Below are positions 8,288 through 47,993 of a DNA stretch of 64,000 nucleotides, piece after piece. The stretch spans positions 12,290 to 76,289 of the forward strand of contig QJVW01000115.1 in NCBI GenBank assembly GCA_003235575.1, in the 5' to 3' direction. How positions within the stretch are numbered: position 1 is the first letter of the stretch; each line of letters begins with the position of its first letter. This DNA is from Candidatus Eiseniibacteriota bacterium. GTDB taxonomy: Bacteria > Eisenbacteria > RBG-16-71-46 > SZUA-252. Below the pieces are notes generated by a model that was given only the letters and a program-made list of their open reading frames with translations, did no database searches and had not been told where the DNA came from. Made by a program: the position numbers and the translations under genes.

Positions 8288-8367
8288 GGCGTGAGGGCGC
8301 GATGAAGGGTTTCGGGGTCCGACAGCGACAGCCATGCCCCCGAAACCCTTCATCGCGCCCTCACGCC
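8288..8367. repeat. Perfect 30-bp inverted repeat (GGCGTGAGGGCGCGATGAAGGGTTTCGGGG ... CCCCGAAACCCTTCATCGCGCCCTCACGCC) separated by a roughly 20-nt loop
   Basis: Read directly from the sequence in the 283-bp spacer between the REC gene stop (8536) and the priA start (8252). The stem is much longer than an intrinsic terminator stem and has no flanking T-tract. Confidence 0.8.
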
Positions 8368-8535
8368 GGCATCGGTGGAGCGACTATTCCGGACACTCGG
8401 ACGCTCCACGACGCCCGTGACGGGAGGAGAATTGTCCCTGCAGGCGATTGTCTGCCGTCGTTAGAGCCGGCGGGGACAATTCTTCTCACGTCCCGCGCGG
8501 GACGTTGGATTGGCTGACGAGGATTGCGGCGGGAA

Positions 8536-8964
8536 CTACGAGGAGGGCGTGGAGCGCTCCGACACCGTCTGTCCCAGGATGGCGTTGATCCGCTCGACCA
8601 GCTTGCGGGGACTGAACGGCTTCGTGATGTAGTCGTCGGCGCCGACGTCAAAGCCCATCTTCTGGTCGACGTTCCTTCCCTTCGCGGAGAGCAGGATCAC
8701 GGGGACGTTTCGCGTTTCCGGGTTCGACTTGACCGCGCGGCAGACTTCGTAGCCGTCCAGCTTCGGCATCATGATGTCGAGGACGATCAGGTCGGGCTTG
8801 TCGCTGCGCACGCGCTCCAGGGCCTGCTCGCCGTCGAGGGCGGTCAGCACTTCGTAGCCTTCCATCCCCAGGCTGAAGTCGAGAATGTGGACGATGTAGA
8901 TTTCGTCGTCCACGACGAGAATCCGCCCCTTCGACATCGGCTCTCCTCCCGGTACGTGTGCCAT
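8536..8964 (-). CDS. Stand-alone response-regulator receiver domain protein (CheY-like), probably starting at the internal MSKGRILVVDD (about 8937)
   Basis: RILVVDDEIYIVHILDFSL...DLIVLDIMMPKLDGYEVCRAVK...VPVILLSAKG...GADDYITKPF are canonical REC motifs (DD, D, T, K). No output domain. Confidence 0.9.
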   Translation of the reverse strand: MAHVPGGEPMSKGRILVVDDEIYIVHILDFSLGMEGYEVLTALDGEQALERVRSDKPDLIVLDIMMPKLDGYEVCRAVKSNPETRNVPVILLSAKGRNVDQKMGFDVGADDYITKPFSPRKLVERINAILGQTVSERSTPSS

Positions 8965-8972
8965 ACCGATAT

Positions 8973-11564
8973 CTATCGGCCCGCTCCGGATGCTTCTGGA
9001 GTCGGAAACGGTGGCCGATCTTGTTGCGGCACAATCAGTTCAACAAGCGTCGCCACCACGGCCTCATCGAACTGCGTCCCGCTGTGGCACCGCAGTTCCG
9101 CCACCGCCTCCTCGTGGCTGATCGGCTGGCGGTACGGCCGCCCCAGCGTCATCGATTCGTAGGCGTCGACGACGGCGATGATCCGTGCGCCCAAGGGAAT
9201 CTGATCGCCGCGCAATCCGCGCGGATAGCCGCGGCCGTCGATACGCTCGTGGTGCGCCAGAATGATTTCGGTCACGTTGGAGTGGAACTCGATCGGTTTC
9301 AGCAATTCGACGCCGCGGGCCGGATGTTCCGCCACGTGCGCCCAGGTATCGGGATCCAGCTCGCCCGGCTCGTGGAGGATGCCCGGCGATACGTGCGCCA
9401 TGCCGACGTCGTGGATTCGGGCCGCGTACGCCAGCACCGAGAGGTCCTGTTCGTTCATGCCCATCTTCCGGCCGATCGCCGTCGCGCGCTCCGCCATCGA
9501 GCCGCCCGTCAGGCGCAGGCGGCTTCGGCGGGTGTGGTCGATGATGGCCGCCAGCGCGTGGGAGGCCTGCTCCGCCCGGTCGGCGGACGCCTCGTGCGCC
9601 GAGGCATGTTCCCAGGCGCGCGCGACCCGATCCGCCAGCGACGTCAGGAGCGCCTCGTCGTCCTGCGTGAACGGGGTGCAGGAGATCTTGTTGTTGATGT
9701 TGATGACGCCCACGACCCGCTCATCCACCTTCACCGGGACGGACAGGAGCGACTTCGTTTCGTACTGGTTGTGGTTTCGTCGTCCGAACCGCTCGTCGTC
9801 TTCGATGTTGGTGATCAGGAGCGGCTGGCCGTGCTTGGCCACCCATCCCGCGATCGAATCGCCGACACGGATCCGCGTGCCGCAAACCACCTCTTCGCGC
9901 AGTCCGCGCGCGGCCTTGATGTAGAGCTCCTCCCGCTCGTCGTCGAGGAGCATGAACGACGCGATCTGGGCGTCCATCACTTCGGCGACCATCTCGACCG
10001 TGAGACGGGTCAGGTGATCGGACACCGAACGCGTCGGGGACCATGTCGCGTGGGTGATCACGTTGGCGTCGCTGGGCGTGGCCGGCAGGGAGACGTGGAA
10101 GCGGGAGCCGTGCCCCGGCTCGCTTTCCGCCGTGATCTCGCCCCCGTGCCACTCGACGATGCTCTTCGCGATCGAAAGCCCGAGCCCGACACCGGGGTAC
10201 TCGCGCGACAGCGAGCCGTCCACCTGGTAGAAGCGGTCGAACACCTTGGCCAGCTCACTCTGCGGAATGCCGATGCCGGTGTCCTCGACCGTCAGGCGCA
10301 CGGTGCTTCCCTCGCCCGCCACGCGGAACGTCGCCGTCCCGCCGCGCGGGGTGAACGTCACCGCGTTCGTTCCCAGGTTCTGCAGCAGCCGGCGAATCAG
10401 ATTCCGGTCCGCCTCGACGATCACCTCCGAGACGTCGATCGCCGCGACGAGCTGGATTCCCTTCGATTCCGCCTGGGGCTTGAGGATCGCGATCTCCTCC
10501 TCGACCAGATCGACCAGGTTCAAGGGCTCGCGGCTCATGCGGAAGCGTCCCGACTCGAGCCGCGTCAGTTCGAGGATCGCCTCGATGAGGCGGGTCAATT
10601 TCCGGGTCTGCTCGTCGATCACGCCCAGGAAGTCGCGCTGCATCGCGGTGTTCTTCGAACCAACGTGCTGTTGCAGCGCCTCGACGTACGCGTGAATGTG
10701 CGTCAGCGGGGTCTTCAACTCGTGCGAGACGGTGGAGACGAACTTGGACTTCATTTCGTTCAGCTCCTCCGCGCGCTCCGTCGCCTCCTCCAGCTGGCCC
10801 ATGCTCTCCTGCAGCCGCTGGACGAGGGCCGCGTTTTCGAGGGCGACCACCGCGTGGGTCGCCAGGATCTCGATCATCTCGACGACCTCGCGCGTGGGAA
10901 GCTTTCGGTCGGCGGGGTCGTCCACCGAGAGATACCCGATCACGGCGCCGTCCTTGCCCGACAGCGGCACGATCAGCACATCCTCTTGGTGCCACTCGCC
11001 GTCGCGCCGGACGCCGAGGTCGGGCGTCCAGCTGTGCGGGTCGTTCTCCCCCCAGAACTTGTGCTCGTGTGGGATGAAGTAGGAGCGGCCGATGCGGAAT
11101 TCCTCGCGCAGCCACGATTCGAACTCGGACGCCGGGACGTCGTAGTTCTCGAGCGCCGTGATCGCGTCGCGCTCCAGCCCCGCGAAGGCCCGCGCCTCGT
11201 AGGTTCCACTTCGAACGTTCAGCACGCGAAGCAGGACGATGCGGTAGCCGACCGCGGAGGTCACGGCGTGCACGATTTCGTGCAGCACCCGATCCAGGCC
11301 CAGGTTCGAGCTGATGGATGTTGCGATTTCCAACACCTTCTGGAGCCTGGTCGCGCGCTGCCGGCTGGTGAGGAGTTGGTCGCGGTAGAGACGCCCCATC
11401 TCCTCGGCGGCCAGCGACAGCTGCTCGTTGCGCTGCATCGCGGCGTCCAGCGAGCCGCGCAGGCGCCGCGCTTCGCGCATGGCGGTCCGACGGCGGCGGA
11501 CGGCCTCGAAGAGAAGGAGCGCCGCGGCCGCGAGCGCCCAGGAGAGCGCGTGGCCGGTCGTCAT
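8973..11564 (-). CDS. Hybrid sensor: TM-GAF-HisKA-HATPase_c-GAF-HD-GYP (histidine kinase fused to a c-di-GMP phosphodiesterase-type domain), paralog 1
   Basis: N-terminal TM segment; H-box VSTVSHELKTPLTHI; N-box RRLLQNLGTNAVTFT; G1 VEDTGIGIP; G2 GVGLGLSIAKSIVEWHGGEI; two GAF-like regions; C-terminal HD-GYP (RIHDVGM ... ILAHHERIDGRGYPRGLRGDQIPLGARIIAVVDAYESM). Confidence 0.9.
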   Translation of the reverse strand: MTTGHALSWALAAAALLLFEAVRRRRTAMREARRLRGSLDAAMQRNEQLSLAAEEMGRLYRDQLLTSRQRATRLQKVLEIATSISSNLGLDRVLHEIVHAVTSAVGYRIVLLRVLNVRSGTYEARAFAGLERDAITALENYDVPASEFESWLREEFRIGRSYFIPHEHKFWGENDPHSWTPDLGVRRDGEWHQEDVLIVPLSGKDGAVIGYLSVDDPADRKLPTREVVEMIEILATHAVVALENAALVQRLQESMGQLEEATERAEELNEMKSKFVSTVSHELKTPLTHIHAYVEALQQHVGSKNTAMQRDFLGVIDEQTRKLTRLIEAILELTRLESGRFRMSREPLNLVDLVEEEIAILKPQAESKGIQLVAAIDVSEVIVEADRNLIRRLLQNLGTNAVTFTPRGGTATFRVAGEGSTVRLTVEDTGIGIPQSELAKVFDRFYQVDGSLSREYPGVGLGLSIAKSIVEWHGGEITAESEPGHGSRFHVSLPATPSDANVITHATWSPTRSVSDHLTRLTVEMVAEVMDAQIASFMLLDDEREELYIKAARGLREEVVCGTRIRVGDSIAGWVAKHGQPLLITNIEDDERFGRRNHNQYETKSLLSVPVKVDERVVGVININNKISCTPFTQDDEALLTSLADRVARAWEHASAHEASADRAEQASHALAAIIDHTRRSRLRLTGGSMAERATAIGRKMGMNEQDLSVLAYAARIHDVGMAHVSPGILHEPGELDPDTWAHVAEHPARGVELLKPIEFHSNVTEIILAHHERIDGRGYPRGLRGDQIPLGARIIAVVDAYESMTLGRPYRQPISHEEAVAELRCHSGTQFDEAVVATLVELIVPQQDRPPFPTPEASGAGR

Positions 11565-13948
11565 GGCGTCACGCCCTCCGTGCGCCCGGTCGGGCGCGCG
11601 GCGCCGGTCGACGGCGGGCGCGCGTCCCCGGCCTCGTCCAGCGCGGCCGCCAGCGCTTCGACGACGTTCGGATCGAACTGCGTCCCGGAGGCGCGGCGGA
11701 GTTCCGCCAGCGCTTCGGCGTCGGAGACGGGATCGCGGTACGGACGTCCCGCGGTCAGCGCCTCGAAGGCATCGACGGCGGCGAGGATGCGCGCCGCCAG
11801 GGGGATTTCCTCCCCGCGCAAGCCGCGTGGATATCCCTCGCCGTCCATCCGCTCGTGATGGGCCAAGATGATCTCGTGCACCTTGGGCGCCGACTCCAAC
11901 GGACGCAGCAGCCGGATGCTCGATTGGGGATGGCTTTCCACGTCACGGCGCTCCCGCTCGCTCCACACCTGGCTGCTGCACCAGGGCGCATTCTCCAAGG
12001 TGAGCATGCCCACGTCGTGCACGCGCGCGATGTAGCCGAGGATGGCGATCTCGTCCTCGGGCAGGGACAGGCGGCGCGCCACGTCGGTGGCCAGCTTGAA
12101 CGAGCGGCGCGTGTTGGGAATCAGCCGCTGACGGCGCGCCCGGATCACCGCCCGGAGGCTGGAGAGGGTCGCGGCGATGTCCGCCTCGGTCGGCTGATGG
12201 TGCAGACGCTCCAGCGCGGCCGAGACGCGCGCCACGATCGCGACCAGCAGCCGGAGGTCGTCCTCGTCGAACGGCAGCCCGTCGGACTTGTTGTTCACGT
12301 TGACGACGCCGACCGTCTCCCCGGCGATGAGGATCGGCGCGGCCAGCAGCGATTTCGTCTCGTACTGCGGGTGGCTCATCTTCCGGAATCGCCGGCTGCT
12401 CTCGATGTCCCGGACCAACAGCGGTTCACCGTGGTGCGCCACCCAGCCCGCGATGGAATCCCCGACGCGCACCTGCGTCCGGGCCACGGTGTCGGGGTCG
12501 AGGCCGTGCGCCGCTTGGACCCGAAGGCTCGTGCCGGTCTCGTCGAGGAACATGAAGGACACAATTCCCGCGTCCATGACCTCGGCGACCATGGTGACGC
12601 ACTGCTGCAGCACGTTCCGGCGCTCCGGCTGAACGAAGAGCGGCTCCAGCGAGCGAATGAGCCTGAGGAAGCCGTGCTGATGGAGCGGCAGTTCGAAGAC
12701 GAACCGCGTTCCTCGGCCGACCTCGCTCTCGACGTGGATCGCGCCTCCATGCAGCTCGACCACGCTCTTCACGATCGCGAGTCCTAGCCCGGTCCCCTCG
12801 GTCCGCGCCCCACCGCCGTCCTCCACGCGGTAGAAGCGCTCGAAGACGTGGGGCAGCTTTTCGGTCGGAATGCCGTGGCCCTGGTCCTCCACCTCGAAGC
12901 GCGCCTGGTCGCCATGCATGGCGACACGCACGAAGATCTCGCGATCCTCCGGCGAGAACTTCGCGGCGTTATGGAGCAGGTTCACGAACACCTGCTTCAG
13001 GAGATCGAAGTCCGCTTCTACCGGCGGCAGGTCGTCCGAGACGGTCACGCGCAGCTGGAGCCGCTTCTGTTGCAGCGTGGGCTCCACCGTGAGGCGCGCG
13101 TCCTCGACGACCGCGGGGATCCCGAGGGGCTCGACGCGAAGACGGCGCCGGCCGGAGTCCATCCGGCTCAAGTCGAGCACATCGTTCACCATGCGGGTGA
13201 GACGGTCCGCCTCTTCATTGATGACGGAGAGGAACTTCTCCTGCATGTCGAAGGACGGCCGACCCAGGTTGTCGAGCAGCGATTCCGTGTAGGCCTTGAT
13301 CGCGGTGAGCGGCGTCCGCATCTCGTGCGAGACGACGGAGATGAGATCCGACTTCGTCTGGTCCATGCGCCGGAGCGCGAGTCGCGCCTCGTCCAGGCTG
13401 CGCGCGGACGCGTGGAGTTCCTCGCGCACGCGAAGGCGATCGACCGCCATGCCGATTTGATCGGCCAGGAACAGTAGGGTGCGGCGGCGGCGGCTGGTCA
13501 CCGGGCGGGCGCGCCGATACCCGACCACCGTCAGGCCCAGGAGGGTCGTGCCGATCCGGAGGGGCATTCCGACCAGCGTCGCGGGGGCGTCCCCGCTCCA
13601 TCCGATCTCGTCGGGTCCCGCCCGCGACGCGTCGGACGCTTCGTGCGCGAGAAACGTCTCGTGGCGAAGCACCTGCCCCAGAAATCCGTCCTGATCGGGC
13701 ACCAGGAGCACGCGGCGCCCGCCCGCGCGATCGCGTTCGTACGCGTAGCCCTCCAGATCGCCCGACTCGTCGTTCAGCAGGAGCAGCGCGAACTGGTCGG
13801 CGCCGGCGATGTCGAGGACGTGCTCCGCCAGGGCGTGAAAGACGGTGTCGGGATCCGTGGCGGCCTGAAGCGCGAAGGAGAGGCTGCCCAGCCGATCAAG
13901 AACGCGGAACGGCGTCGCGGTGCCGCGCGGCGCGTCAGACCCATTCAT
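11561..13948 (-). CDS. Hybrid sensor: GAF-HisKA-HATPase_c-GAF-HD-GYP, paralog 2 (tandem duplicate of the previous gene)
   Basis: H-box VVSHEMRTPLTAI; G1 VEDQGHGIP; G2 GTGLGLAIVKSVVELHGGAI; second GAF; HD-GYP (RVHDVGM ... ILAHHERMDGEGYPRGLRGEEIPLAARILAAVDAFEALT). Its stop overlaps the downstream paralog's start by 4 nt. Confidence 0.9.
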   Translation of the reverse strand: MNGSDAPRGTATPFRVLDRLGSLSFALQAATDPDTVFHALAEHVLDIAGADQFALLLLNDESGDLEGYAYERDRAGGRRVLLVPDQDGFLGQVLRHETFLAHEASDASRAGPDEIGWSGDAPATLVGMPLRIGTTLLGLTVVGYRRARPVTSRRRRTLLFLADQIGMAVDRLRVREELHASARSLDEARLALRRMDQTKSDLISVVSHEMRTPLTAIKAYTESLLDNLGRPSFDMQEKFLSVINEEADRLTRMVNDVLDLSRMDSGRRRLRVEPLGIPAVVEDARLTVEPTLQQKRLQLRVTVSDDLPPVEADFDLLKQVFVNLLHNAAKFSPEDREIFVRVAMHGDQARFEVEDQGHGIPTEKLPHVFERFYRVEDGGGARTEGTGLGLAIVKSVVELHGGAIHVESEVGRGTRFVFELPLHQHGFLRLIRSLEPLFVQPERRNVLQQCVTMVAEVMDAGIVSFMFLDETGTSLRVQAAHGLDPDTVARTQVRVGDSIAGWVAHHGEPLLVRDIESSRRFRKMSHPQYETKSLLAAPILIAGETVGVVNVNNKSDGLPFDEDDLRLLVAIVARVSAALERLHHQPTEADIAATLSSLRAVIRARRQRLIPNTRRSFKLATDVARRLSLPEDEIAILGYIARVHDVGMLTLENAPWCSSQVWSERERRDVESHPQSSIRLLRPLESAPKVHEIILAHHERMDGEGYPRGLRGEEIPLAARILAAVDAFEALTAGRPYRDPVSDAEALAELRRASGTQFDPNVVEALAAALDEAGDARPPSTGAARPTGRTEGVTP

Positions 13949-14955
13949 GCGCGTGGCTCCGTGCGATGCGATTCCCTTGCCGGACCGACAAGCGTCCCGT
14001 CCGACCGGCGATCCGGCACGATGCAGCTGCCGTGGATGGCTTTTCCCAGCTTCTTGAGTTCCCTGACGATGTCGTTGACCTGCGCGCTGTGCTGGATGTC
14101 GCGGCCGACGTTCGTCACGACGGGGATCGTCACCGAGAGAAGACCGAAGTTCTTCACCCCACCCTGACGGTTCGAGAGCACCGTGATGAACCCGCGCTCG
14201 GCGTCTTCCGGGTCGTACTGACTCGCAATGTTGCTGTCGAACTCGCGCTTCACGCAGTCGGCCACCAGGCCCGCCCGATCCGGGACGGTCATGATCACGA
14301 AATCGTCGCCGCCGATGTGGCCGACGAAGTCCCCTCCTCCACCGACCTTCTCCACGGCTCGGCCCAGGAGCTCCGCCGTGAATTGGATCAGCGCATCGCC
14401 CCGTGCGTATCCGTAGTAGTCATTGAACGCCTTGAAATTGTCGAGATCGATATGGAGAAAGGCGAACTTCTCACCCGCTCCGATGCGCCGCGTCAGTTCG
14501 TTTTCGATGAGCACGTTTCCGGGAAGGCCGGTCAGCGCGTTCGACGAGAGCAGCGCGCGGCGGCTCCGGAGCTGGTTGCGAACGCGAAACAGGACCTCCT
14601 CGTTCGCGAACGGTTTGGTCACGTAGTCGTCCCCGAACGCGTTCAGTCCCTCGAGGCGCTCCTCCAGCGATGATCTGGCCGTGAGGAAGATCACGGGAAT
14701 GCGGCTGGTCAGGGGGTTCGCCTTCAGGCGGCGGCAGACTTCGTACCCATCCATGCGCGGCATCGCCACGTCGAGCAGGATGAGATCGGGGGGATCGCGT
14801 CGAACCTCCTCCAGCGCGCTCAGTCCGTCGGCGGCGGTGCGAACGTCGTAGTTCGCGTCCGCCGCTCCGCGCAGTGCCTGCTCCAAGAGGAGGCGAATGT
14901 GCAACTCGTCCTCCACCACCAGAATGCGCCCGCGATCAGCCGGCTGCTCGCTCAC
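13945..14955 (-). CDS. Response regulator REC-GGDEF (diguanylate-cyclase-type domain with the variant motif GGDDF), with a likely GTG start at about 14955
   Basis: REC: RILVVEDELHIRLL...DLILLDVAMPRMDGYEVCRRLK...DDYVTKPF. GGDEF domain: FLHIDLDNFKAFNDYYGYARGD...GHIGGDDFVIM. The track ORF extends to 15201 through an Arg-rich implausible N-terminus. No RxxD I-site precedes GGDDF. Confidence 0.8.
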   Translation of the reverse strand: MSEQPADRGRILVVEDELHIRLLLEQALRGAADANYDVRTAADGLSALEEVRRDPPDLILLDVAMPRMDGYEVCRRLKANPLTSRIPVIFLTARSSLEERLEGLNAFGDDYVTKPFANEEVLFRVRNQLRSRRALLSSNALTGLPGNVLIENELTRRIGAGEKFAFLHIDLDNFKAFNDYYGYARGDALIQFTAELLGRAVEKVGGGGDFVGHIGGDDFVIMTVPDRAGLVADCVKREFDSNIASQYDPEDAERGFITVLSNRQGGVKNFGLLSVTIPVVTNVGRDIQHSAQVNDIVRELKKLGKAIHGSCIVPDRRSDGTLVGPARESHRTEPRA

Positions 14956-15119
14956 GATTTCCCCCGGGGAGATAGTGGAAGTTGCGTTCTCTCCAGGAAT
15001 TAATCGTCCGATCCGGCACCTTCTTGAGTGAAACGAGTGGGGATCGAACCGCGTCGGGACGGGGGGCGCCCGACGGTAACCGATTGCCTTGTAGTGGGTT
15101 GCCGACCTACGACGGCGGG

Positions 15120-16730: not shown

Positions 16731-16851
16731 AGCGGGGCGCCCGAGGCGCGCGGGATCCAGCGCCATTCGCGCCGTCCGGGAGCGGGGAGCCATCCCCGTC
16801 GGCGCCTGACTCACGAAGCCGGAGGGGATGGCTCCCCGCTTCCGGACCCCG

Positions 16852-17280
16852 CTACGCTCGTTCGCTGATCGCCGCGGCCAGTCGGTTCTTCGCGCGTTCC
16901 AGCGCCCGCATCGCGCGCTCGCGGTCGATGGGTTCGTCGCCGCCGGCGCCGTCGTTCTGCAGCCGCTGCTGGGCCCGTTGGAGCGCCGACTTCGCGCGTT
17001 CCACGTCGATCGCGCCCGCGACCTCGGCCGCATCGGCCAGCACCGTCGCCCGATTTCCCGATACCTCCAGAAAGCCGCCGCTCACGGCGTAGAACGAACG
17101 CTTCCCCTCTTCGTCGCGGACTTCGAGACGGCCGGGGCGGAGCGAGGTGATCAGCGGGGCGTGATGGGCCAGGACTCCCAGGTACCCCTCGGAGCCCGGC
17201 GCCTGCAGCGCGGTCACGGGCGCCTCGAGCAGCAGGCGCTGCGGCGTCACCAGGCGGAACGTGAAGGTCGTCTCGGCCAT
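16852..17280 (-). CDS. atpC: F1Fo ATP synthase epsilon subunit; the real start is the internal MAETTFTF
   Basis: MAETTFTFRLVTPQRLLLEAPVTALQAPGSEGYLGVLAHHAPLITSLRPGRLEVRDEEG...; the N-terminal beta-sandwich plus C-terminal helices of epsilon. Confidence 0.9.
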   Translation of the reverse strand: MAETTFTFRLVTPQRLLLEAPVTALQAPGSEGYLGVLAHHAPLITSLRPGRLEVRDEEGKRSFYAVSGGFLEVSGNRATVLADAAEVAGAIDVERAKSALQRAQQRLQNDGAGGDEPIDRERAMRALERAKNRLAAAISERA

Positions 17281-27211: not shown

Positions 27212-29623
27212 ATGGGCGTCATGGACGAAGGAATCCTTCGGGAGTTCCTTGCCGAGAGCCTGGAAGGGCTGGGGCAAGTGGAGCGCGATTTGGTTGCGCT
27301 CGAACGCGATCCCGGCGACGTCGCCAAGATCGGCGGCGTCTTTCGCGTGTTCCACACGATCAAGGGAACGTGCGGATTCTTCGGCTTCACGAAACTCGCC
27401 GCGGTAACGCACGCCGGCGAGAGCCTCCTGAGCCGGCTTCGTGGCGGCGAGCGGGCGCTCTCGCCGGAGATCGTGAACGCCCTCCTCGCTTTGGTCGACA
27501 CGGTCCGAGCCATTCTCGGCAGGATCGAATCGTCGAAGGAAGAAGGAGAGGGCAATTTCGCCCGCCTCATCCAAAGGCTCAACCGCCTGGAGGAGGAAGG
27601 CGCCACCGAAGCACCACCGGCCGCTACGGAACCGCCGCCCGCGCCGACGGCTGCGGGCGCCGCGACGGAGCCGCCCGCTCCCGAAGCGGACACGGCGGTC
27701 ATCCCGCGTGACGGCGGGCTCTTCGGACCCCTCATCGCGAGCGGAAGACTCGACCCCGAAGCGGTCGCGATCGCCGCGCAGCAGCAGCGGCTGGGCGACC
27801 CCCGGCGTCTGGGCGAGATCTTGGTGGACCATGGCGCGCTGCAACCCCAGGACATCCTGGACGCGCTCCTCGTGCGGAGCGAAATGGCGGCCAGCACCCT
27901 CGCGGAGTCGAGCATCCGGGTCGACGTTCACCTCCTGGATCTCCTGATGAACCTTGTGGGCGAACTGGTTCTCGCCCGCAACCAGCTGCTTCAAAACGTC
28001 GCCTCGCAGGATCACGCGGATCTACCCGGAACGGTGCAGCGGTTGAATCACATCACGACCGAGCTGCAGGAGCGGATCATGAAGACCCGCATGCAGCCGA
28101 TCGGCAACGTATGCAACAAGCTCCCGCGCTTGGTGCGCGACATCGCGTCCGCCTGCGGGAAGCAGGTCCGGCTGGAGCTGGAGGGGGTCGATACCGAACT
28201 GGACCGCACGATCATCGAGGCGATTCGCGATCCGTTGACGCACCTCATCCGCAACGCCATCGACCACGGCATCGAGACGACGGAAGCGCGCGTCGCGAAC
28301 GGCAAATCGCCCGAAGGTCTGCTCGTGGTTCGCGCCTTCCACGAAGGCGGGAAGGTGCACCTCGAGGTCGAGGACGACGGCGCGGGGCTGTCCCTCGAGT
28401 CCATTCGCGAACGGGCGCTCCGCCAGAACCTCATTCCGGCGGACCGCGCGGCGCGCATGACGGAGCGCGACTGGTACAACGTGATCTTCCTGCCCGGGTT
28501 CACGACCGCCGCGCGCGTGACGAACGTCTCCGGGCGCGGCGTGGGCATGGACGTGGTGAAGACGAACGTCGAGCGGATCGGCGGCGCGATCGACGTCGAC
28601 TCGAGGCCCGGACACGGCACCACGATGCGGATTCGGATTCCCCTCACGCTCGCCATCGTGCCCGCGCTCGTTATCTCGGTGGACGGCGAGCGCTACGCCA
28701 TTCCGCAGGTGAACCTGATCGAGTTGGTCCGCGTGGAGCGCGCCGAGGCGTCCACGCGCCTTGTGACCGCGTACGACGTGCCGGTGCTTCGCTACCGCGA
28801 GCGGCTCCTTCCCCTGCTCGACCTCCGAGCCATTCTCGGCACCGCGCCGACGCCCGCGCGCGCGGATGGCCCGGAGGGTGACGCGATCTCGATCGTCGTG
28901 CTCCACGCCGACGGTCTCACGGTCGGCCTCGTCGTGGACACCATCGAAGCGTCGCAGGAGATCGTGGTGAAGCCACTGGGCGAGCCGCTTCGCCAAATTC
29001 CCGTGTTCGCGGGCGCGACCATCCTCGGCGACGGCGCGGTCGCGCTCATCCTCGACGTCCCCGGGCTGGCCCGCCACGCCAGGATCTCCCGCTCGGACGG
29101 CGAGATCGAGGAGAGCGCGCCGGCGGAGAACGTGGACCGCGGCGCCATGGATCGCCAGACCCTGGTGGTGTGCACGGTCGGCCCGCGCTGGACCGTCGCG
29201 ATCCCGCAGACGCAGATCGCGCGGCTGGAGGAATTCCGCCGGGCGGACGTGGAGCGGTCGGGCGATCGCGCCATCATCCAGTACCGGGGCGGTCTTCTCC
29301 CGCTCGTGTCCCTTGGCGCGCTGCTCGATCTGGGCGGAACGCACGCGGCGACCGACATCGAGTGGATCGGCGACGCCGACCCCCTCCGCGTGGTGGTTCA
29401 CGAGCGCGAGGGACGCGCCGTCGGTCTGATCGTGGAGGCCGTCGTGGAGATCGTCGAAGAGCGCGTGGCGCCGGGAGGCGGCGACGCATCCACCGGGTTC
29501 GCCGGCGCGGTGGTGGTGCGCGGATCGGTCACGGAATTGATCGACCTCGAAGGGTTGCTGCGGCAGGCGGACGTTCATCGCCACAGCGCGCTGGCGGCGT
29601 CGGCGGAAGGGGGCGCCCGATGA
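27212..29623 (+). CDS. cheA: Chemotaxis histidine kinase CheA with two C-terminal CheW-like (P5) domains
   Basis: P1/Hpt FRVFHTIKGTCGFFGF; P3 dimerisation VDVHLLDLLMNLVGELVLARNQL; P4 N-box HLIRNAIDHGIE, G1 VEDDGAGL, G2 GRGVGMDVV, then GTTMRIRIPLTLAI; CheW domain 1 (ISIVVLHADGLTVGLVVD...) and CheW domain 2 (QTLVVCTVGPRWTVAIP...LIVEAVVEIVE). Confidence 0.95.
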   Translation: MGVMDEGILREFLAESLEGLGQVERDLVALERDPGDVAKIGGVFRVFHTIKGTCGFFGFTKLAAVTHAGESLLSRLRGGERALSPEIVNALLALVDTVRAILGRIESSKEEGEGNFARLIQRLNRLEEEGATEAPPAATEPPPAPTAAGAATEPPAPEADTAVIPRDGGLFGPLIASGRLDPEAVAIAAQQQRLGDPRRLGEILVDHGALQPQDILDALLVRSEMAASTLAESSIRVDVHLLDLLMNLVGELVLARNQLLQNVASQDHADLPGTVQRLNHITTELQERIMKTRMQPIGNVCNKLPRLVRDIASACGKQVRLELEGVDTELDRTIIEAIRDPLTHLIRNAIDHGIETTEARVANGKSPEGLLVVRAFHEGGKVHLEVEDDGAGLSLESIRERALRQNLIPADRAARMTERDWYNVIFLPGFTTAARVTNVSGRGVGMDVVKTNVERIGGAIDVDSRPGHGTTMRIRIPLTLAIVPALVISVDGERYAIPQVNLIELVRVERAEASTRLVTAYDVPVLRYRERLLPLLDLRAILGTAPTPARADGPEGDAISIVVLHADGLTVGLVVDTIEASQEIVVKPLGEPLRQIPVFAGATILGDGAVALILDVPGLARHARISRSDGEIEESAPAENVDRGAMDRQTLVVCTVGPRWTVAIPQTQIARLEEFRRADVERSGDRAIIQYRGGLLPLVSLGALLDLGGTHAATDIEWIGDADPLRVVVHEREGRAVGLIVEAVVEIVEERVAPGGGDASTGFAGAVVVRGSVTELIDLEGLLRQADVHRHSALAASAEGGAR

Positions 29624-30106: not shown

Positions 30107-31858
30107 ATGGTTCTCACGATTCGTCGCCAACTGGTCGGGAGCGCGCTCTTGGCGCTTCTGGGGTTCGTCATCTTCGGCGTCGTGGCCTGGTTCACGCTGA
30201 ACGAACTCAAGGTCAACGGCCCGCGTTACCACCGCATCGTCCAGGGCAAGGACCTGGTGGCCGACACCGTGCCGCAATCGGCCACCTTGATCGAGTCCTA
30301 CCTGGGCGTCCACCAGATGCTCGGCGAGACCGACCGGCGACGGCTGGACGACCTGATCCGCGAAAGCCAGCAGCTCCGCGTGCAATTCGAGGAGCGTCAC
30401 CAGCACTGGGAGCAAACGCTTCCCCCGGGCCCCCTGCGCCAGGCGCTCCACGAGCGCGCCTATCCCCCCGCGGCGGAGTTCCTGCGGGTGCGCGACGACG
30501 CGTTCATTCCCGCGGTGCGCGGAGGCGACGAGGAAACGGCGCGGCAGATCGCGGAAGGCGTTCTCAAACCGCTGTACGAGCAGCACATGAAGGCCGTCAT
30601 GGAAGTCGTGCAGCTGGCGACCACGCAGACGGAGCACGAGGAGGCCGAGGCGCTGGCGATCGCCCAGCAGCGGTCCACCCTGGTCCCGCTGGTCGGCCTG
30701 CTCCTGGCGGCGATCACGCTCGCCATCGGGCTGATCCTCTCTCGTCGGATCGTGCGCGCCATCGAGCAGATGCGCCGGGTCGCGGAGCGGACCGCCCGCG
30801 GGGACCTCACGTCCCGCGTCCAGTACACGGCGAAGGACGAGCTCGGAGACCTGGCCGCGTCGACGAACGAAATGGTCGAGTCGCTGCGCGAGGTGCTGTC
30901 GCACATCGGCGAGCGCTCGGTGACGCTGGCCACCGCCTCGGAGGAACTCTCCACCGTCTCCACGCAAATGATCGGAAGCGCCGAGGAAACGTCGCGCCAG
31001 GCGAGCACGGCCTCGGCCGGATCGGAGCAGGTGAGCCGCAGCGTGGAGAGCGTCTCGGCGTCCGTGGAGGAGATGATCGCGAGCATTCAGGAGATCTCCA
31101 AGAACACCAGCGAGGCGGCGCGCGTCGCCACGGTGGCTTCGGGAGAGGCGGACGTCACGAACGCCGCCGTGAACAAGCTCGGCACCAGCAGCGCGGAGAT
31201 CGGCAAGGTGGTGCAGGTCATCAACACCATCGCCCAGCAGACCAACCTCCTGGCGCTGAATGCGACGATCGAGGCCGCCCGCGCGGGCGAGGCCGGAAAG
31301 GGATTCGCGGTGGTCGCCAACGAGGTGAAGGAACTCGCCAACGAGACCGCGACCGCGACGAAGGACATCGGCCGGAAGATCGAGGCCATTCAGGCGGACA
31401 CGACGGACGCGATTCAGGCCATCGGGAAGATCAGCGAGACGATTCAGCAGATCACGGATATCTCCAACTCCATCGCGACCGCGCTGGAACAACAGCTTTC
31501 CACGTCGGGTGAGATCGGCCGGAACCTCGCCGAGGCGGCCCGCGGGAGCGCCGAGATCAGCGGCGGCATCGTGGCGGTCGCCGAGATCGCCCGGGATACC
31601 GCCGGCAGCAGCGAAAGCACGCAGAAGGCGGCGGAGGAACTGGCGCGGTTGGCAGCGGAGCTCCGCGGACTCACGCAGCGGTTTCACTACGCCGAACAGG
31701 GCGTCGACGCGCCGGTCCCCGAGGGGCCGTTCGCGGCGACCACGCCGGGCACGGTGGTGGCCTGGGATGCCGGCCGGGCGGCGGCGCAGCGACCTACGAA
31801 CGAGCGGGACGAGAGACGTCGCGCCGAGGACCGGGACACGCTGGCGGATGCCGGTTGA
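30107..31858 (+). CDS. Methyl-accepting chemotaxis protein (2 TM, roughly 150 aa periplasmic four-helix-bundle-like sensor, HAMP, MCP signalling domain)
   Basis: TM1 [19 protein letters not shown]; TM2 [17 protein letters not shown]; HAMP; highly conserved tip [33 protein letters not shown]. Confidence 0.93.
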
Positions 31859-31918: not shown

Positions 31919-32305
31919 ATGATGAAGGCCATGGTGGTAGACGACTCGAGCGCGATGCGCGCGATTCTCACGAAGCAGCTCCGGGAACTGGGCTTCGACG
32001 TCGTGCAGGCGTCGAACGGACAGGAGGCGCTTCGCCTGCTTCACGAAGATGGCGTCGTGGATCTCGTCCTCCTCGATTGGAACATGCCGGGGATGGACGG
32101 GGCCGAAGTGCTGTCGCTGTTTCGCTCCGAGCCCGCCTACCGCGAGATGCGGGTGATGATGGTGACGACGGAGAGCGAGATGTCGCAGGTGACGGTGGCG
32201 TTGGAGGCGGGGGCGAACGAATACCTCATGAAGCCGTTCGACCGCGAGTCCCTCGTCGAGAAGCTCATCCTGCTCGGGATGGATCCGAGCGGCCACACCG
32301 TTTAG
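31919..32305 (+). CDS. cheY: Chemotaxis response regulator CheY
   Basis: 128 aa MMKAMVVDDSSAMRAILTKQL...DLVLLDWNMPGMDG...VMMVTTESE...EYLMKPF; single REC domain. Confidence 0.9.
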   Translation: MMKAMVVDDSSAMRAILTKQLRELGFDVVQASNGQEALRLLHEDGVVDLVLLDWNMPGMDGAEVLSLFRSEPAYREMRVMMVTTESEMSQVTVALEAGANEYLMKPFDRESLVEKLILLGMDPSGHTV

Positions 32306-32315
32306 CGAGGGGCGC

Positions 32316-33395
32316 ATGGGCCGGATTCGAATTTTGGTCGTGGACGACGTCGCGATCGTTCGGCGTTTGGTCGTGAACGCGTTGGCGGTGGACGCGGACA
32401 TTCAGGTCGTCGGGACCGCGGCGAACGGCCGCGAGGCGCTGGCGAAGATTCCCCAGGTCCGCCCCGACTTGATCATTCTGGACTACGAGATGCCGGAGAT
32501 GGACGGCCTCGAGACGCTGAAGGAAGTGCGGCGACTGCACCCCGGCATTCGCGTCATCTTCTTCTCCTCGTACACGCGCCAGGGGGCGAAGGTCTCGCTG
32601 GAGGCGCTCTGGCAGGGAGCCGATGACTACGCCGCGAAGGTCACCGCCGACAATCTCGCGGCGGCGACGCTTTGCGTTCAAAACGACCTGTTGCCGAAGA
32701 TCCGAGCCCTCTGCGCACGCATCACGCGCGACGCGCCGGGCCTTCCTGCGGCGCCCGCGCCGGTGGTGGAAGCCGGCGGCGCGCCCTCCCACGCTCCCGC
32801 CGAAATCGTGGCGATCGGCGCCTCCACGGGCGGACCGCGCGCGCTCTCGGCGGTGATCGAGTCGTTGCCGAACGATTTCGCCCTGCCCATTCTCGTCGTG
32901 CAGCACATGCCGCCGTTGTTCACGCGGTCGTTGGCCGAGCGGCTGGCTTCCCGTTCGACGTTTCGCTGCATCGAGGCGGTCGACGGGTGCGTGGTCGAAC
33001 GGGGCACGATCCTGATCGCACCGGGCGACTGGCACCTGGTGGCGGTCCGGGAGGGAGACGTGGTCCGCGCGCACCTGACGGCGGATCCCCCCGAGAATTC
33101 GTGCCGGCCGGCTGTCGATCCGCTCTTCCGCTCGGTGGCCGAGGCCTACGGCGCCGGGGCGATGGGCATCCTCCTGACCGGCATGGGTCAGGACGGGCTG
33201 GCGGGGGCGCGTCGCATCCGCGAGCGGGGCGGCTCCGTGCTGGCGCAGGACGAGGCGAGCAGCGTGGTCTGGGGGATGCCGGGCGCCGTCGCGCGCGCCG
33301 GGCTCGCGAACAAGATCGTGCCGCTTCCGGAAATGGCGAGCGAGATTCTCAAACTCTCGAAGGCGGCGGGGCGCAATCGCGCCGCGGTTTCGTGA
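32316..33395 (+). CDS. cheB: Chemotaxis protein-glutamate methylesterase CheB (REC plus methylesterase)
   Basis: REC: RILVVDDVAIVRRL...DLIILDYEMPEMDG. CheB catalytic domain: IVAIGASTGGPRAL...VVQHMPPLFTRSLAERL...GMGQDGLAG. Confidence 0.95.
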   Translation: MGRIRILVVDDVAIVRRLVVNALAVDADIQVVGTAANGREALAKIPQVRPDLIILDYEMPEMDGLETLKEVRRLHPGIRVIFFSSYTRQGAKVSLEALWQGADDYAAKVTADNLAAATLCVQNDLLPKIRALCARITRDAPGLPAAPAPVVEAGGAPSHAPAEIVAIGASTGGPRALSAVIESLPNDFALPILVVQHMPPLFTRSLAERLASRSTFRCIEAVDGCVVERGTILIAPGDWHLVAVREGDVVRAHLTADPPENSCRPAVDPLFRSVAEAYGAGAMGILLTGMGQDGLAGARRIRERGGSVLAQDEASSVVWGMPGAVARAGLANKIVPLPEMASEILKLSKAAGRNRAAVS

Positions 33396-36292: not shown

Positions 36293-37966
36293 CTAGGACG
36301 TGTGCCCGGCTTCCTCGGGGTCAGCCGCTGTGCGCGGGGGCGCCCAGGGCGCCGTGTTCTTCACGACGGGGATGGTGCCTTTGTTGAGGGCTTCCACGAA
36401 CACGGAGACGACTTCCGGCGCGAACTGGGTTCCCGCCTTCTCGGTCATCTGCGCCACCGCCTGTTCCATGGTGAGCCCGGCGCGATAGGGGCGATCCGTG
36501 GTCATGGCGTCGAATGCATCCGCGACGTTCACGATCTTCGCCGCGAGCGTCATCTCCTCGCCCGTCAACCCATCGGGGTATCCCTTTCCGTCCACCCGCT
36601 CATGGTGGTGACGGATCATGTCGATGCAGCGCTCCAGGAAGCGGACGCCGCGGACCATCTCGGCGCCGCGGACGGGATGCATCTTGACCATCCTCCACTC
36701 CTCGTCGGTCAGCGCACCCGGCTTGTGGAGGACCTTGTCCTCGGTGTGTACCTTTCCGATGTCATGCAGGAAGGCGCCGAATTGGATCCGCTGCACCTCC
36801 TCGGGGTCGAACTCCAGCGCCCGCGCGATGCCCACCGAATAGGCCGCGACGCGCTCGGTATGGCCGTGCGTGTACGGATCCTTCTCTTCGATCCGGGAGA
36901 CGAGCAGCCGGACGGTGGAGACGTAGGCCTCCTGGAGATCCTTGAATAGCCGCGCGTTCTCGATGGCGATGCCGGCCGATTCCGAGAGCGCACGAAGCAT
37001 TTCCAGGTCCGCCGCCTGGAACTCCTGGCCGCTGACCTTCTCCCCGATCGCCAGGACGGCGACCAGCCGGTTCTTCATGATGACCGGCGAGACCAGCGTC
37101 AATCCCGCCGCGTAGAGCTGCCCCACCTCGCGCTCGAACCCGCGGTGGTGCTCCACGGAGGCGAGTCGCACCGGGCGCGGGTCCTCGCTCCCGGGTGCGT
37201 GGAGGGAACGAATGAATTCTCCGTTGTAGTCGAGCACGATCGAGCGCGCCTGCTCCTCCTTCATGCCCTTGAAATTGGAGGCGTCCAGGCGCGTCGGGCT
37301 CTCCCGGTCGTCGGTGAGGAAAAGACAGGCGGCGTTGACGCGCAGCTGGCCCATCACGCTGAGGATCAGCGTTCCCAAGAGGCCTTCGAGATCAAGCGAC
37401 GCGTTGAGCTGGTGCGTCAAGCCCATCAGCGTCTCGAGGCTGTAGACCTGGAACCGAAGCTCCTTGTTCCGGACCAGCAGATCCTCGCGGTTTCGCTGCA
37501 CCTCGGATTCCAGCTCCTGGTTCTTTCCCGCCAGGGCGTCGTGCCGCTCCAGCCGCTCGAAGATGCGACGGACCTTGATGAGCAGTTCCTTGGGAGAGAA
37601 CGGCTTCGTCAGGTAGTCGTCCGCGCCGTGCATCAGCCCCTGCAGCCGCGAGTCGACCTCCGCGCTGGCGGACACCATCACGATCGGGATATGCGCGGTG
37701 TCGCGCGTACTCTTCATCGCGGCGCACACTTCGAATCCCGTCTTCTTCGGCAGACGCAGGTCCAGGATCACGAGATGCGGCGGGGTGCGGCGCACGATCT
37801 CCAGCGCATCCTCCCCCGACATCGCGGTCAGGACGCGGTATCCGTTCTGGGTCAGCGAGATCTGAAGCAGCTCGACAACGCGGCGATCGTCGTCCACGAC
37901 GAGGATGGTCCGCTTTCCTTTCGCAGGACCGGCTTCGGTGGCCGGCCGGAGGCTTTCGGTGCTCAC
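36293..37966 (-). CDS. Response regulator REC-(coiled coil)-GAF-HD-GYP (c-di-GMP phosphodiesterase-type output)
   Basis: REC: TILVVDDDRRVVELLQ...HLVILDLRLPKKTGFEVCAAMK...DDYLTKPF. GAF-like middle region. HD-GYP: FLHDIGKVH ... IRHHHERVDGKGYPDGLTGEEMTLAAKIVNVADAFDAMT. Confidence 0.9.
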   Translation of the reverse strand: MSTESLRPATEAGPAKGKRTILVVDDDRRVVELLQISLTQNGYRVLTAMSGEDALEIVRRTPPHLVILDLRLPKKTGFEVCAAMKSTRDTAHIPIVMVSASAEVDSRLQGLMHGADDYLTKPFSPKELLIKVRRIFERLERHDALAGKNQELESEVQRNREDLLVRNKELRFQVYSLETLMGLTHQLNASLDLEGLLGTLILSVMGQLRVNAACLFLTDDRESPTRLDASNFKGMKEEQARSIVLDYNGEFIRSLHAPGSEDPRPVRLASVEHHRGFEREVGQLYAAGLTLVSPVIMKNRLVAVLAIGEKVSGQEFQAADLEMLRALSESAGIAIENARLFKDLQEAYVSTVRLLVSRIEEKDPYTHGHTERVAAYSVGIARALEFDPEEVQRIQFGAFLHDIGKVHTEDKVLHKPGALTDEEWRMVKMHPVRGAEMVRGVRFLERCIDMIRHHHERVDGKGYPDGLTGEEMTLAAKIVNVADAFDAMTTDRPYRAGLTMEQAVAQMTEKAGTQFAPEVVSVFVEALNKGTIPVVKNTAPWAPPRTAADPEEAGHTS

Positions 37967-44745: not shown

Positions 44746-45006
44746 CGCGAAGCGACCCAGACCCCCCGCGTGGCCTCCGGCCCCCGACCCGATGCAACAC
44801 CCGGAGGCCACGCACCCCCCCTGTGGCAGTGAGGCCGGTCCCGAAAGGGATCGGCCTTCTGCTTGTAGCGACATCGCCCGTTGCCGAGCCGATTCGCTTG
44901 AGCGGGTTGCGGGTGCCGCGGGAACGGAATAATCCCCTTCTGGACGCGAACAGAAAATGCCACGGTCCCGAAGGGGATTATTCCGCGCCCGCGGCGGCGG
45001 CGCGAA

Positions 45007-45466: not shown

Positions 45467-47993
<2,527 letters not shown>

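Follow-up and report, generated by a model that had tools for sequence, protein, structure and literature searches.

A conserved four-gene operon of a Candidatus Eisenbacteria-type genome joins a REC-GGDDF regulator, two histidine kinases with a variant HD-GYP domain, and a single-domain receiver

The stretch of DNA analyzed here, 64,000 nucleotides long (the window), carries at positions 8536 to 14955 of its minus strand a conserved, translationally coupled signaling operon of a Candidatus Eisenbacteria-type genome, the genes of which we call g1 to g4. With a probability of roughly 0.55, we read this cluster as a branched two-component system with cyclic di-GMP (c-di-GMP) output and feedback, in a layout like that of DivJ/PleC-DivK-PleD. 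A sequence-only reading had described a four-gene operon here, encoding a REC-GGDEF-like protein, two kinase-HD-GYP proteins and a lone REC, and this is what the minus-strand open reading frames encode. The GAF domains and the noncanonical motifs (GGDDF in g1 and HDVGM in the kinases) had been missed. The genes are as follows:

13945-14955, minus strand: g1, 336 residues, REC plus a GGDEF-fold domain.
11561-13948, minus strand: g2, 795 residues, soluble sensor kinase with GAF, HisKA, HATPase_c, GAF, and variant HD-GYP.
8973-11564, minus strand: g3, 863 residues, paralogous sensor kinase with anchor, coiled coil, weak GAF, HisKA, HATPase_c, GAF, and variant HD-GYP.
8536-8937, minus strand: g4, 133 residues, single-domain receiver.

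The junctions between these genes were read directly. The stop/start overlaps proposed earlier are real, each being an ATGA (13948-13945 between g1 and g2; 11564-11561 between g2 and g3), and GGAG or GGAGG lies about 9 to 12 nucleotides upstream of each, inside the preceding gene. The first gene starts at a GTG with a GGGGGA Shine-Dalgarno sequence, and its N terminus is matched by 19 homologues. The gap of 9 to 28 nucleotides that had been given for the final junction needs correction: g3 and g4 are separated by 35 nucleotides if g4 starts at the ATG at 8937, which is preceded by a Shine-Dalgarno sequence and is also the choice of the Joint Genome Institute gene call and of the orthologues, or by 8 nucleotides with the alternative ATG at 8964. 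As far as organization goes, the operon claim stands, given the 4-nucleotide overlaps, the order and overlaps kept in relatives, and the lack of an internal terminator signal above chance (4 terminator-like sites in a consensus scan of the cluster versus 3.4 expected from shuffled sequences). A sigma-70 consensus scan of the cluster returned 0 promoters, and consensus models may not suit this phylum; we regard both the terminator and the promoter scans as uninformative for an Eisenbacteria-type phylum.

The cluster is conserved as a unit and in its position. In all 12 of the related Eisenbacteria/Latescibacteria-type loci examined, it is flanked by tsaD and priA, and those close homologues that bear a name are mostly Candidatus Eisenbacteria. 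The window itself matches a Joint Genome Institute metagenome contig identically. The loci L083 and L084, with 57 to 70% protein identity, share the order atp operon, tsaD, REC-GGDEF-like gene, two kinase-HD-GYP genes, lone REC, priA, TPR protein, and rho, with junction overlaps of 1 to 4 nucleotides. In more distant loci (L003, L005-L011, L018, and L019), tsaD and priA likewise enclose a REC-GGDDF gene, one or two kinase-GAF-HD-GYP genes, and a lone REC, in that order. Where only one kinase is present (L011 and L019, 'a' type; L018, 'b' type), both the REC-GGDDF and the lone REC are kept. Further variation was seen in L008 (5140-12698), where a lone REC follows each of two kinase-HD-GYP genes, and in L005, L006, and L009, where an additional short HisKA kinase of about 277 residues directly follows the REC-GGDDF gene and the large kinases have 5 to 6 predicted transmembrane segments. 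Within the cluster, g2 and g3 are paralogous over their full length (38% identity, E 4e-153), and the receivers of g1 and g4 are 45% identical.

The slowest-evolving gene of the neighborhood is g4. It is 80 to 85% identical where TsaD is 48 to 52% and PriA 44 to 49% identical (L007, L010, L011, L018, L019, L083, and L084), and a rate so far below that of its housekeeping neighbors suggests several constrained interaction partners. Pfam assigns it Response_reg (3e-30) and no second domain, and the acidic pair (DD), D54, S84, and K106 are present. The fixed tsaD-priA position together with the extreme conservation of g4 suggests a part in the core physiology of this uncultured phylum. A role in antiphage defense, with GGDD as in Cas10/mCpol-like proteins or with a cyclic-oligonucleotide-based antiphage signaling system, was considered and rejected: PADLOC gave generic REC and HATPase matches only, and the surrounding genes are housekeeping ones (atp operon, tsaD, priA, and rho).

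Both kinases have intact catalytic parts. Pfam finds HisKA, HATPase_c, GAF, and HD_5/HD (1e-34) in g2 and g3, HisKA and HATPase_c well above the cutoff, with an N-terminal GAF in g2 and a weaker one in g3. The boxes SHEMRTPL, HNAAKF, DQGHGI, and GTGLGL of g2 have equivalents in g3, the H, N, G1, and G2 boxes show no variation among 114 full-length g2 orthologues, and the predicted phosphorylated histidines are H208 in g2 and H281 in g3. A hydrophobic anchor at residues 6 to 22 of g3 (nucleotides 11499-11549), followed by a basic cluster, is conserved in the orthologues of L083 and L084 and absent from g2. In helix 1 of the dimerization and histidine phosphotransfer (DHp) domain, the two kinase lineages have distinct, conserved signatures (IKAYTETL versus IRAYVEAL), with the main specificity positions after the histidine (T, A, and Y) identical in g2 and g3.

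The regulator g1 is a putative c-di-GMP synthase, by sequence and model a cyclase of the WspR/DgcR type. Its parts are listed here:

g1 residues 11-124, REC with phosphoacceptor D62; then a coiled-coil linker; residues 138-314, GGDEF-fold domain.
14299-14322, minus strand: GHIGGDDF motif of g1.

Pfam matches Response_reg (1e-27) and GGDEF (8e-15), the latter match being confined to positions 5-87 of the 161 in the profile, its N-terminal half. In the AlphaFold2 model (mean predicted local distance difference test, pLDDT, 83.8), a helical linker joins a complete receiver to a GGDEF-type fold, and the best full-length Foldseek matches of the model in the PDB are WspR, DgcR, and PleD. In 20 orthologues and 81 cross-phylum homologues, the receiver residues E15/D16, D62, T92, and K114 are invariant or conservatively replaced. 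The earlier claim of a cyclase is borne out in that a REC is joined to a GGDEF fold; its motif, however, is GGDDF rather than GG[D/E]EF. The alignment places GGDDF opposite GGEEF of PleD and GGGD opposite the RxxD I-site; at this site, five residues before GG and common but not required in such cyclases, g1 lacks the Arg, and the same 20 orthologues and 81 homologues have G-x-x-D or are variable. D170, K175, N178, D187, K301, and K305 are kept in 77 to 81 of the 81 cross-phylum sequences, and their equivalence to D327, K332, N335, D344, K442, and R446 of PleD is partly from alignment and partly our reading of the C-terminal motif. One GGDDF enzyme, GSU1937 of Geobacter sulfurreducens, is catalytically active in vivo (PMC8835794) and is the one GGDDF case known to be active; the motif of g1 is thus unusual yet not disqualifying for an enzyme.

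The REC-GGDDF protein belongs to a family with at least 588 relatives in a pattern scan of one genome per species, spread over Eisenbacteria, Latescibacteria, Omnitrophota, Planctomycetota, Elusimicrobiota, Chloroflexota, Actinomycetota, Bacillota, Vulcanimicrobiota, and Gemmatimonadota. GH[IV]GGDDF is constant in the family, one of the two search patterns having been GHIGGDDF itself. Neighbors were clustered in 80 genome loci; in 23 of these, of high GC content, crude calling of open reading frames did not work, and we used only robust recurring neighbors. The REC-GGDDF gene of Omnitrophota, Planctomycetota, and Elusimicrobiota comes after a gene for a FIST protein and directly after one for a transmembrane (TM)-GAF-HisKA kinase, the DHp helix 1 of which is very similar to that of the cluster kinases. 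This recurrent kinase neighbor supports g1 as a genuine kinase substrate. The FIST/TM-GAF-HisKA context was seen in L023, L026, L028, L037, L051, L053, L058, L076, and L079 (Omnitrophota/Planctomycetota and others). A different context was seen in Actinomycetota (L047, L049, L054, L059, L060, L071, L074, and L080), where rpe and ribD-ribE-ribBA-ribH flank the gene, priA, fmt, and rsmB lie upstream, and a kinase is not adjacent. Any function assigned to this unstudied family would extend to many phyla.

The HD-GYP domain of the kinases departs from the canonical form in a consistent way. Its motifs are found at these positions:

12005-12022, minus strand: HDVGM of g2.
11828-11860, minus strand: HHERMDGEGYP of g2.
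11735-11746, minus strand: RPYR of g2.
9399-9416, minus strand: IHDVGM of g3.
9222-9254, minus strand: GYP of g3.

The C-terminal 360 residues of g2 and g3 form a GAF-stalk-HD-GYP module that matches the PmGH profile (E 1e-33) and was also aligned to PA4781 and V-cGAP3; DvhD is the second-best PDB profile match of the domain. In the AlphaFold2 model of g2 residues 435 to 795, the top Foldseek match is PmGH (4mcw), over 347 columns. The HD, third His, HH, GYP, Asp, and RPYR are invariant in the 114 full-length g2 orthologues, and HD, H, HH, and Asp are present in g3 too. At the position of PmGH H189, g2 and g3 have N or T and the orthologues S, T, or R, with His in 2 of 114; at that of K225, the Lys of HDxGK, all 114 g2 orthologues have Met; at that of E185, neither g2 nor g3 has an acidic residue. 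The residues that contact c-di-GMP, the GYP Tyr and RxYR, are kept (motif definitions of GYP and RxY[K/R] from bioRxiv 2021.11.05.467447). At the position of the KPG lid, g2 has SSQ, g3 has EPG, and the canonical paralogue of the window (36293-37966) has KPG; residues 648 to 663 and 674 to 682 of g2 (about 11903-12007), which follow HDVGM at the lid site, have pLDDT below 50.

This architecture recurs. When g2 was compared with 1.84 billion cluster representatives, at least 53 of the best 150 matches were co-linear HisKA-HATPase-GAF-HD-GYP proteins. We counted residues, in PmGH numbering, in 46 of these diverse kinase-fused HD-GYP representatives (H276, H277, and Y285 were fixed by the selection filter, hence give no evidence):

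H189: His in 0 of 46.
K225: Lys in 0 of 46 (Met 30, Leu 15, Ile 1).
H221: His in 23, Tyr in 22, and Phe in 1 of 46.
D222: Asp in 45 of 46.
H250: His in 46 of 46.
D305: Asp in 46 of 46.
R314: Arg in 41 of 46.
K317: Arg or Lys in 41 of 46.

Since the canonical HD-GYP of the same window has all of these residues, the deviations are specific to the kinase-fused domains rather than drift throughout the lineage. The PmGH variants H189A, K225A, and H221A are each inactive (PMC4159591), and with the equivalents of H189 and K225 lost, hydrolysis by the kinase HD-GYP is doubtful. DvhD, in which an HD-GYP with a defective metal site binds c-di-GMP without hydrolyzing it, relays the binding through movement of the preceding stalk helices (PMC13090378). 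From the residues kept and lost, we conclude that the kinase HD-GYP likely binds c-di-GMP, that its efficient hydrolysis is doubtful, and that sensing of c-di-GMP is at least as likely as hydrolysis.

The proposal that g1 and g4 hold the only phosphoacceptor partners of the kinases is not correct. Both are plausible partners, their receiver residues and those of the kinases being intact; they are not the only ones, as three more receiver proteins are encoded in the window. One of these is an orphan REC-GAF-HD-GYP protein some 22 kb away, with a receiver 45% identical to g4 and 42% identical to the g1 receiver, about as close as those two are to one another. It lacks a kinase of its own in the window, in which there is no HisKA kinase other than g2 and g3, and the circuit, said to be self-contained, is thus not demonstrably closed. 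This distal gene (36293-37966) may be the phosphorylation-controlled canonical phosphodiesterase. Nor is g4 CheY-like except in size: the nearest solved receivers are of the PhoP/PleD-D1/YycF type, CheY and DivK ranking far below them, and g4 lies outside a che context, the true che cluster at 27 to 34 kb having a CheY of its own. The distal genes are these:

36293-37966, minus strand: orphan REC-GAF-HD-GYP, 557 residues, canonical (GHTERV, HDIGK, and KPG).
37963-40500, minus strand: STAS-GAF-HD-GYP, 845 residues, degenerate (RDIGM, no first His), overlapping 36293-37966 by 4 nucleotides.
27212-29623, plus strand: CheA with Hpt, dimerization, HATPase, and two CheW-like stretches.
30107-31858, plus strand: methyl-accepting chemotaxis protein with HAMP.
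31919-32305, plus strand: CheY, 128 residues.
32316-33395, plus strand: CheB.

The genes at 36293-40500 form a second c-di-GMP-type pair, with no adjacent HisKA kinase.

In the mechanism we propose for the branched system, g2 (soluble) and g3 (membrane anchored) would sense signals through their GAF domains and autophosphorylate on H208 and H281, respectively. Phosphate passed from the kinases to D62 of g1 would lead to dimerization of g1 and synthesis of c-di-GMP; phosphate passed to D54 of g4 would feed a second branch, in which g4 may act as a phosphate sink or as a DivK-like allosteric partner of the kinases. The HD-GYP of the kinases would bind c-di-GMP and then either hydrolyze it slowly or, as in DvhD, signal to the kinase through the stalk helix. 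Because g1 lacks an I-site, and with it a feedback of its own, an HD-GYP route of either kind would supply product feedback. The single-kinase loci, in keeping both receivers, argue for one kinase serving both and hence for a branched design. The balance between synthesis and degradation that phosphorylation had been suggested to set presupposes two canonical catalytic domains and is not supported in that form: the synthase motif is GGDDF, and the HD-GYP lacks the H189 and K225 equivalents, which leaves the hydrolytic side doubtful.

Several observations weigh against this reading. Every member of the cluster family comes from an uncultured organism. The orphan REC-GAF-HD-GYP protein (36293-37966) could be a further or an alternative target of the kinases, and the residues compared for kinase-receiver specificity (DHp helix 1 and receiver helix 1) give little guidance, as the receivers differ in no readable pattern. 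In g1, the GGDDF motif together with the His that stands two residues ahead of GG, where Arg is usual, might alter activity or substrate. In the kinases, the lid KPG is absent from g2 and replaced by EPG in g3, and the region models poorly, so that c-di-GMP binding is only putative; both proteins also keep HD and HH, which is compatible with a binuclear enzyme. Finally, RpfG of Xanthomonas is likewise without equivalents of E185 and H189 (PMC4159591), and a close Lysobacter homologue of RpfG is reported to hydrolyze c-di-GMP robustly (bioRxiv 2021.11.05.467447). The precedents of RpfG and DvhD thus point opposite ways on the function of the kinase HD-GYP.

The model of the sequence-only reading is an alternative in which g2 and g3 are bifunctional kinase/phosphodiesterases with a fully active HD-GYP, such that phosphorylated g1 makes c-di-GMP, the kinases degrade it, and the circuit is closed with g4. 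The strong constraint under which HD, H, HH, GYP, D, and RPYR are invariant would be expected of it, as would the architecture that the C-terminal half shares with the active PmGH, the reported activity of RpfG-type proteins without E185 and H189 equivalents, and the conservation of the cluster as a unit. We nevertheless judge it unlikely on account of the residues that are gone: all 46 kinase-fused representatives have lost the first His as well as the HDxGK Lys, half of them also the His of HD, and each of these three substitutions kills PmGH activity. The canonical REC-GAF-HD-GYP 22 kb away, with no kinase of its own in the window, is moreover the more obvious phosphorylation-controlled phosphodiesterase. 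A more extreme view of the same noncanonical motifs is that neither GGDDF nor HD-GYP is catalytic, both being interaction modules that tether g1 to the kinases, in the way that HD-GYP::GGDEF complexes are formed by RpfG, with output through g4. The conservation of g4, well beyond that of the other genes here, would fit, as would RpfG itself, a protein without E185/H189 equivalents whose GYP motif reportedly mediates binding to GGDEF proteins (discussed in PMC4159591). However, the metal, phosphate, and guanine contacts of GGDDF are invariant across phyla, even with no HD-GYP partner nearby, as expected of an enzyme, and a GGDDF protein can be active, which makes this the least probable of the readings we weighed.

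Improbable too, if less so, is an arrangement of two insulated pairs that arose by tandem duplication, g1 with g2 and g3 with g4, responding to different signals (cytoplasmic versus membrane associated) without cross talk, so that their adjacency reflects duplication history. The two kinases and the two receivers do form paralogous pairs, each receiver gene abuts one kinase gene, the DHp helix-1 signatures IKAYTETL and IRAYVEAL are distinct and conserved, and L008 has a lone REC after each kinase. Insulation is hard to reconcile with L011, L019, and L018, where one kinase is accompanied by both REC-GGDDF and lone REC, with the identity of the main DHp specificity positions (T, A, and Y) in g2 and g3, or with the translational coupling or close spacing of all four genes.

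Going beyond the branched system as such, we tentatively postulate, as a possibility that we hold at well under even odds, that the kinase-fused HD-GYP is a distinct H-site-less subfamily (no first His, no Lys, and often no HD His) that has turned from a phosphodiesterase into a cyclic-dinucleotide sensor gating histidine-kinase activity. Here it would complete a feedback loop together with the GGDDF cyclase that lacks an I-site, and the cluster would be a two-component oscillator or homeostat, gated by a second messenger and fixed in the core genome of a candidate phylum. Neither the components of the cluster nor its general logic is novel. What is new is the H-site-less HD-GYP on histidine kinases, recurrent, diverse, and unmentioned in the running text of the HD-GYP census; the pairing of such kinases with a GGDDF cyclase that has no I-site and belongs to a large family not yet studied; and the fixation of the whole module at a core-genome position of a candidate phylum. 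Neither a HisKA-HATPase-HD-GYP fusion nor c-di-GMP in Eisenbacteria is described in the census text (apart from its Table 3, which was illegible) or in the other literature searched. Two-component control of c-di-GMP is well known, and to our knowledge the nucleotide domains always sit on the response regulator (WspR, PleD, and RpfG). If the kinase HD-GYP is a sensor, it would offer a new route for direct feedback of c-di-GMP on histidine kinases and would be the second case, after DvhD, of an HD-GYP used as a receptor.

Candidate boundaries of the unit lie in its flanking spacers, which contain the following elements:

14977-15028, minus strand: AT-rich upstream element, CTCAAGA (15028-15022), 16 nucleotides, GATTAATTCC (15005-14996), about 11 nucleotides, CAACTTCC (14984-14977).
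8288-8367: GC-rich hairpin 1 in the g4-priA spacer, 30-nucleotide perfect arms.
8412-8499: GC-rich hairpin 2 in the g4-priA spacer, 34-nucleotide arms, 82% complementary.

Upstream, we aligned the tsaD-g1 spacers of this window, L083, L084, and L003; the three blocks CTCAAGA, GATTAATTCC, and CAACTTCC are invariant in these four diverged genomes, and the rest of the GC-rich spacer cannot be aligned. On this pattern, the element is a probable promoter or leader of the cluster, of a type missed by the sigma-70 scan. Downstream, the g4-priA spacer is 283 nucleotides long here, compared with 34 and 59 nucleotides, without hairpins, in L083 and L084. In this genome, the 3' end of the unit is probably set by the hairpins, which would serve as terminators without a T-tract; in the relatives, priA, 34 to 59 nucleotides past g4, may be cotranscribed. 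Known RNAs or riboswitches in the leader or spacers were sought with Rfam, at the gathering score and at E ≤ 1, and only generic hairpin (miRNA) models were returned, for the two inverted repeats and far below threshold. A repeated mobile element at 8288-8367 was rejected as well, the arm sequence being found at that one place only. Four long intergenic GC-rich hairpins occur in the window (8288-8367, 8412-8499, 16769-16852, and 44915-44995), with arms of 30 to 35 nucleotides and loops of 14 to 20 nucleotides; none has a T-tract, their sequences are unrelated to one another, and they may represent either insertion scars or terminators that work without a T-tract. The only Rfam match of the window above the gathering score is a tRNA gene at 47919-47990 (plus strand).

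Among known systems, the nearest functional analogue of the cluster is the alphaproteobacterial DivJ/PleC-DivK-PleD system, and the nearest structural relatives of its parts are WspR/DgcR, PmGH, and DvhD. In Caulobacter and Agrobacterium, several HisKA kinases (DivJ and PleC, with PdhS) likewise serve a single-domain REC, DivK, and a REC-GGDEF cyclase, PleD (PMC7003649; bioRxiv 2020.04.29.069633), the two receiver genes are linked, and the first receiver domain of PleD is the best or near-best match for the receivers of g1 and g4. The homology seen is at the domain level. In the present cluster, a single operon holds the kinases and both receivers, g1 differs from PleD in its single REC, its GGDDF motif, and its lack of an I-site, and DivJ and PleC are without the GAF-HD-GYP module that g2 and g3 carry. 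WspR (PA3702) and DgcR share with g1 the REC, the helical linker, and the GGDEF fold, and are its best full-length structural matches; g1 departs from them in having GGDDF for GG[DE]EF, His for Arg two residues before GG, no RxxD, and an extra beta-hairpin in its C-terminal half. GSU1937 also has a GGDDF motif (PMC8835794), whereas it is a membrane enzyme of the Hypr type (Ser348) that makes cyclic GMP-AMP and c-di-GMP, and g1 has D187, the Asp typical of GTP-specific cyclases, and a REC input.

For the kinases, PmGH of Persephonella marina (PDB 4MCW/4MDZ) has the same GAF-stalk-HD-GYP arrangement as the C-terminal 360 residues of g2 and g3, in which its H221, D222, H250, H276, H277, D305, Y285, R314, and K317 (as Arg) are kept; unlike PmGH, g2 and g3 lack equivalents of E185, H189, and K225 and the KPG lid, and the module lies behind a histidine kinase. 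The PAS-HD-GYP protein DvhD of Desulfovibrio vulgaris (PDB 9RBZ/9RC0; PMC13090378) resembles them in having an HD-GYP with an incomplete metal site, but its losses are the opposite of those in g2 and g3, with SQ for HD and MN for HH while the first His and the Lys remain, and its output is a periplasmic domain rather than a kinase. RpfC/RpfG of Xanthomonas is also a two-component system coupled to HD-GYP, RpfG being without E185 and H189 equivalents (PMC4159591), yet there the HD-GYP is on the response regulator (REC-HD-GYP) and not on the kinase. SgmT of Myxococcus xanthus (PMC3509222), a histidine kinase with a C-terminal degenerate c-di-GMP-metabolizing domain that acts as a c-di-GMP receptor, shares the overall plan of g2 and g3, with the differences that its domain is a GGDEF with an I-site rather than an HD-GYP and that SgmT, an orphan kinase, has a DNA-binding protein as its partner.

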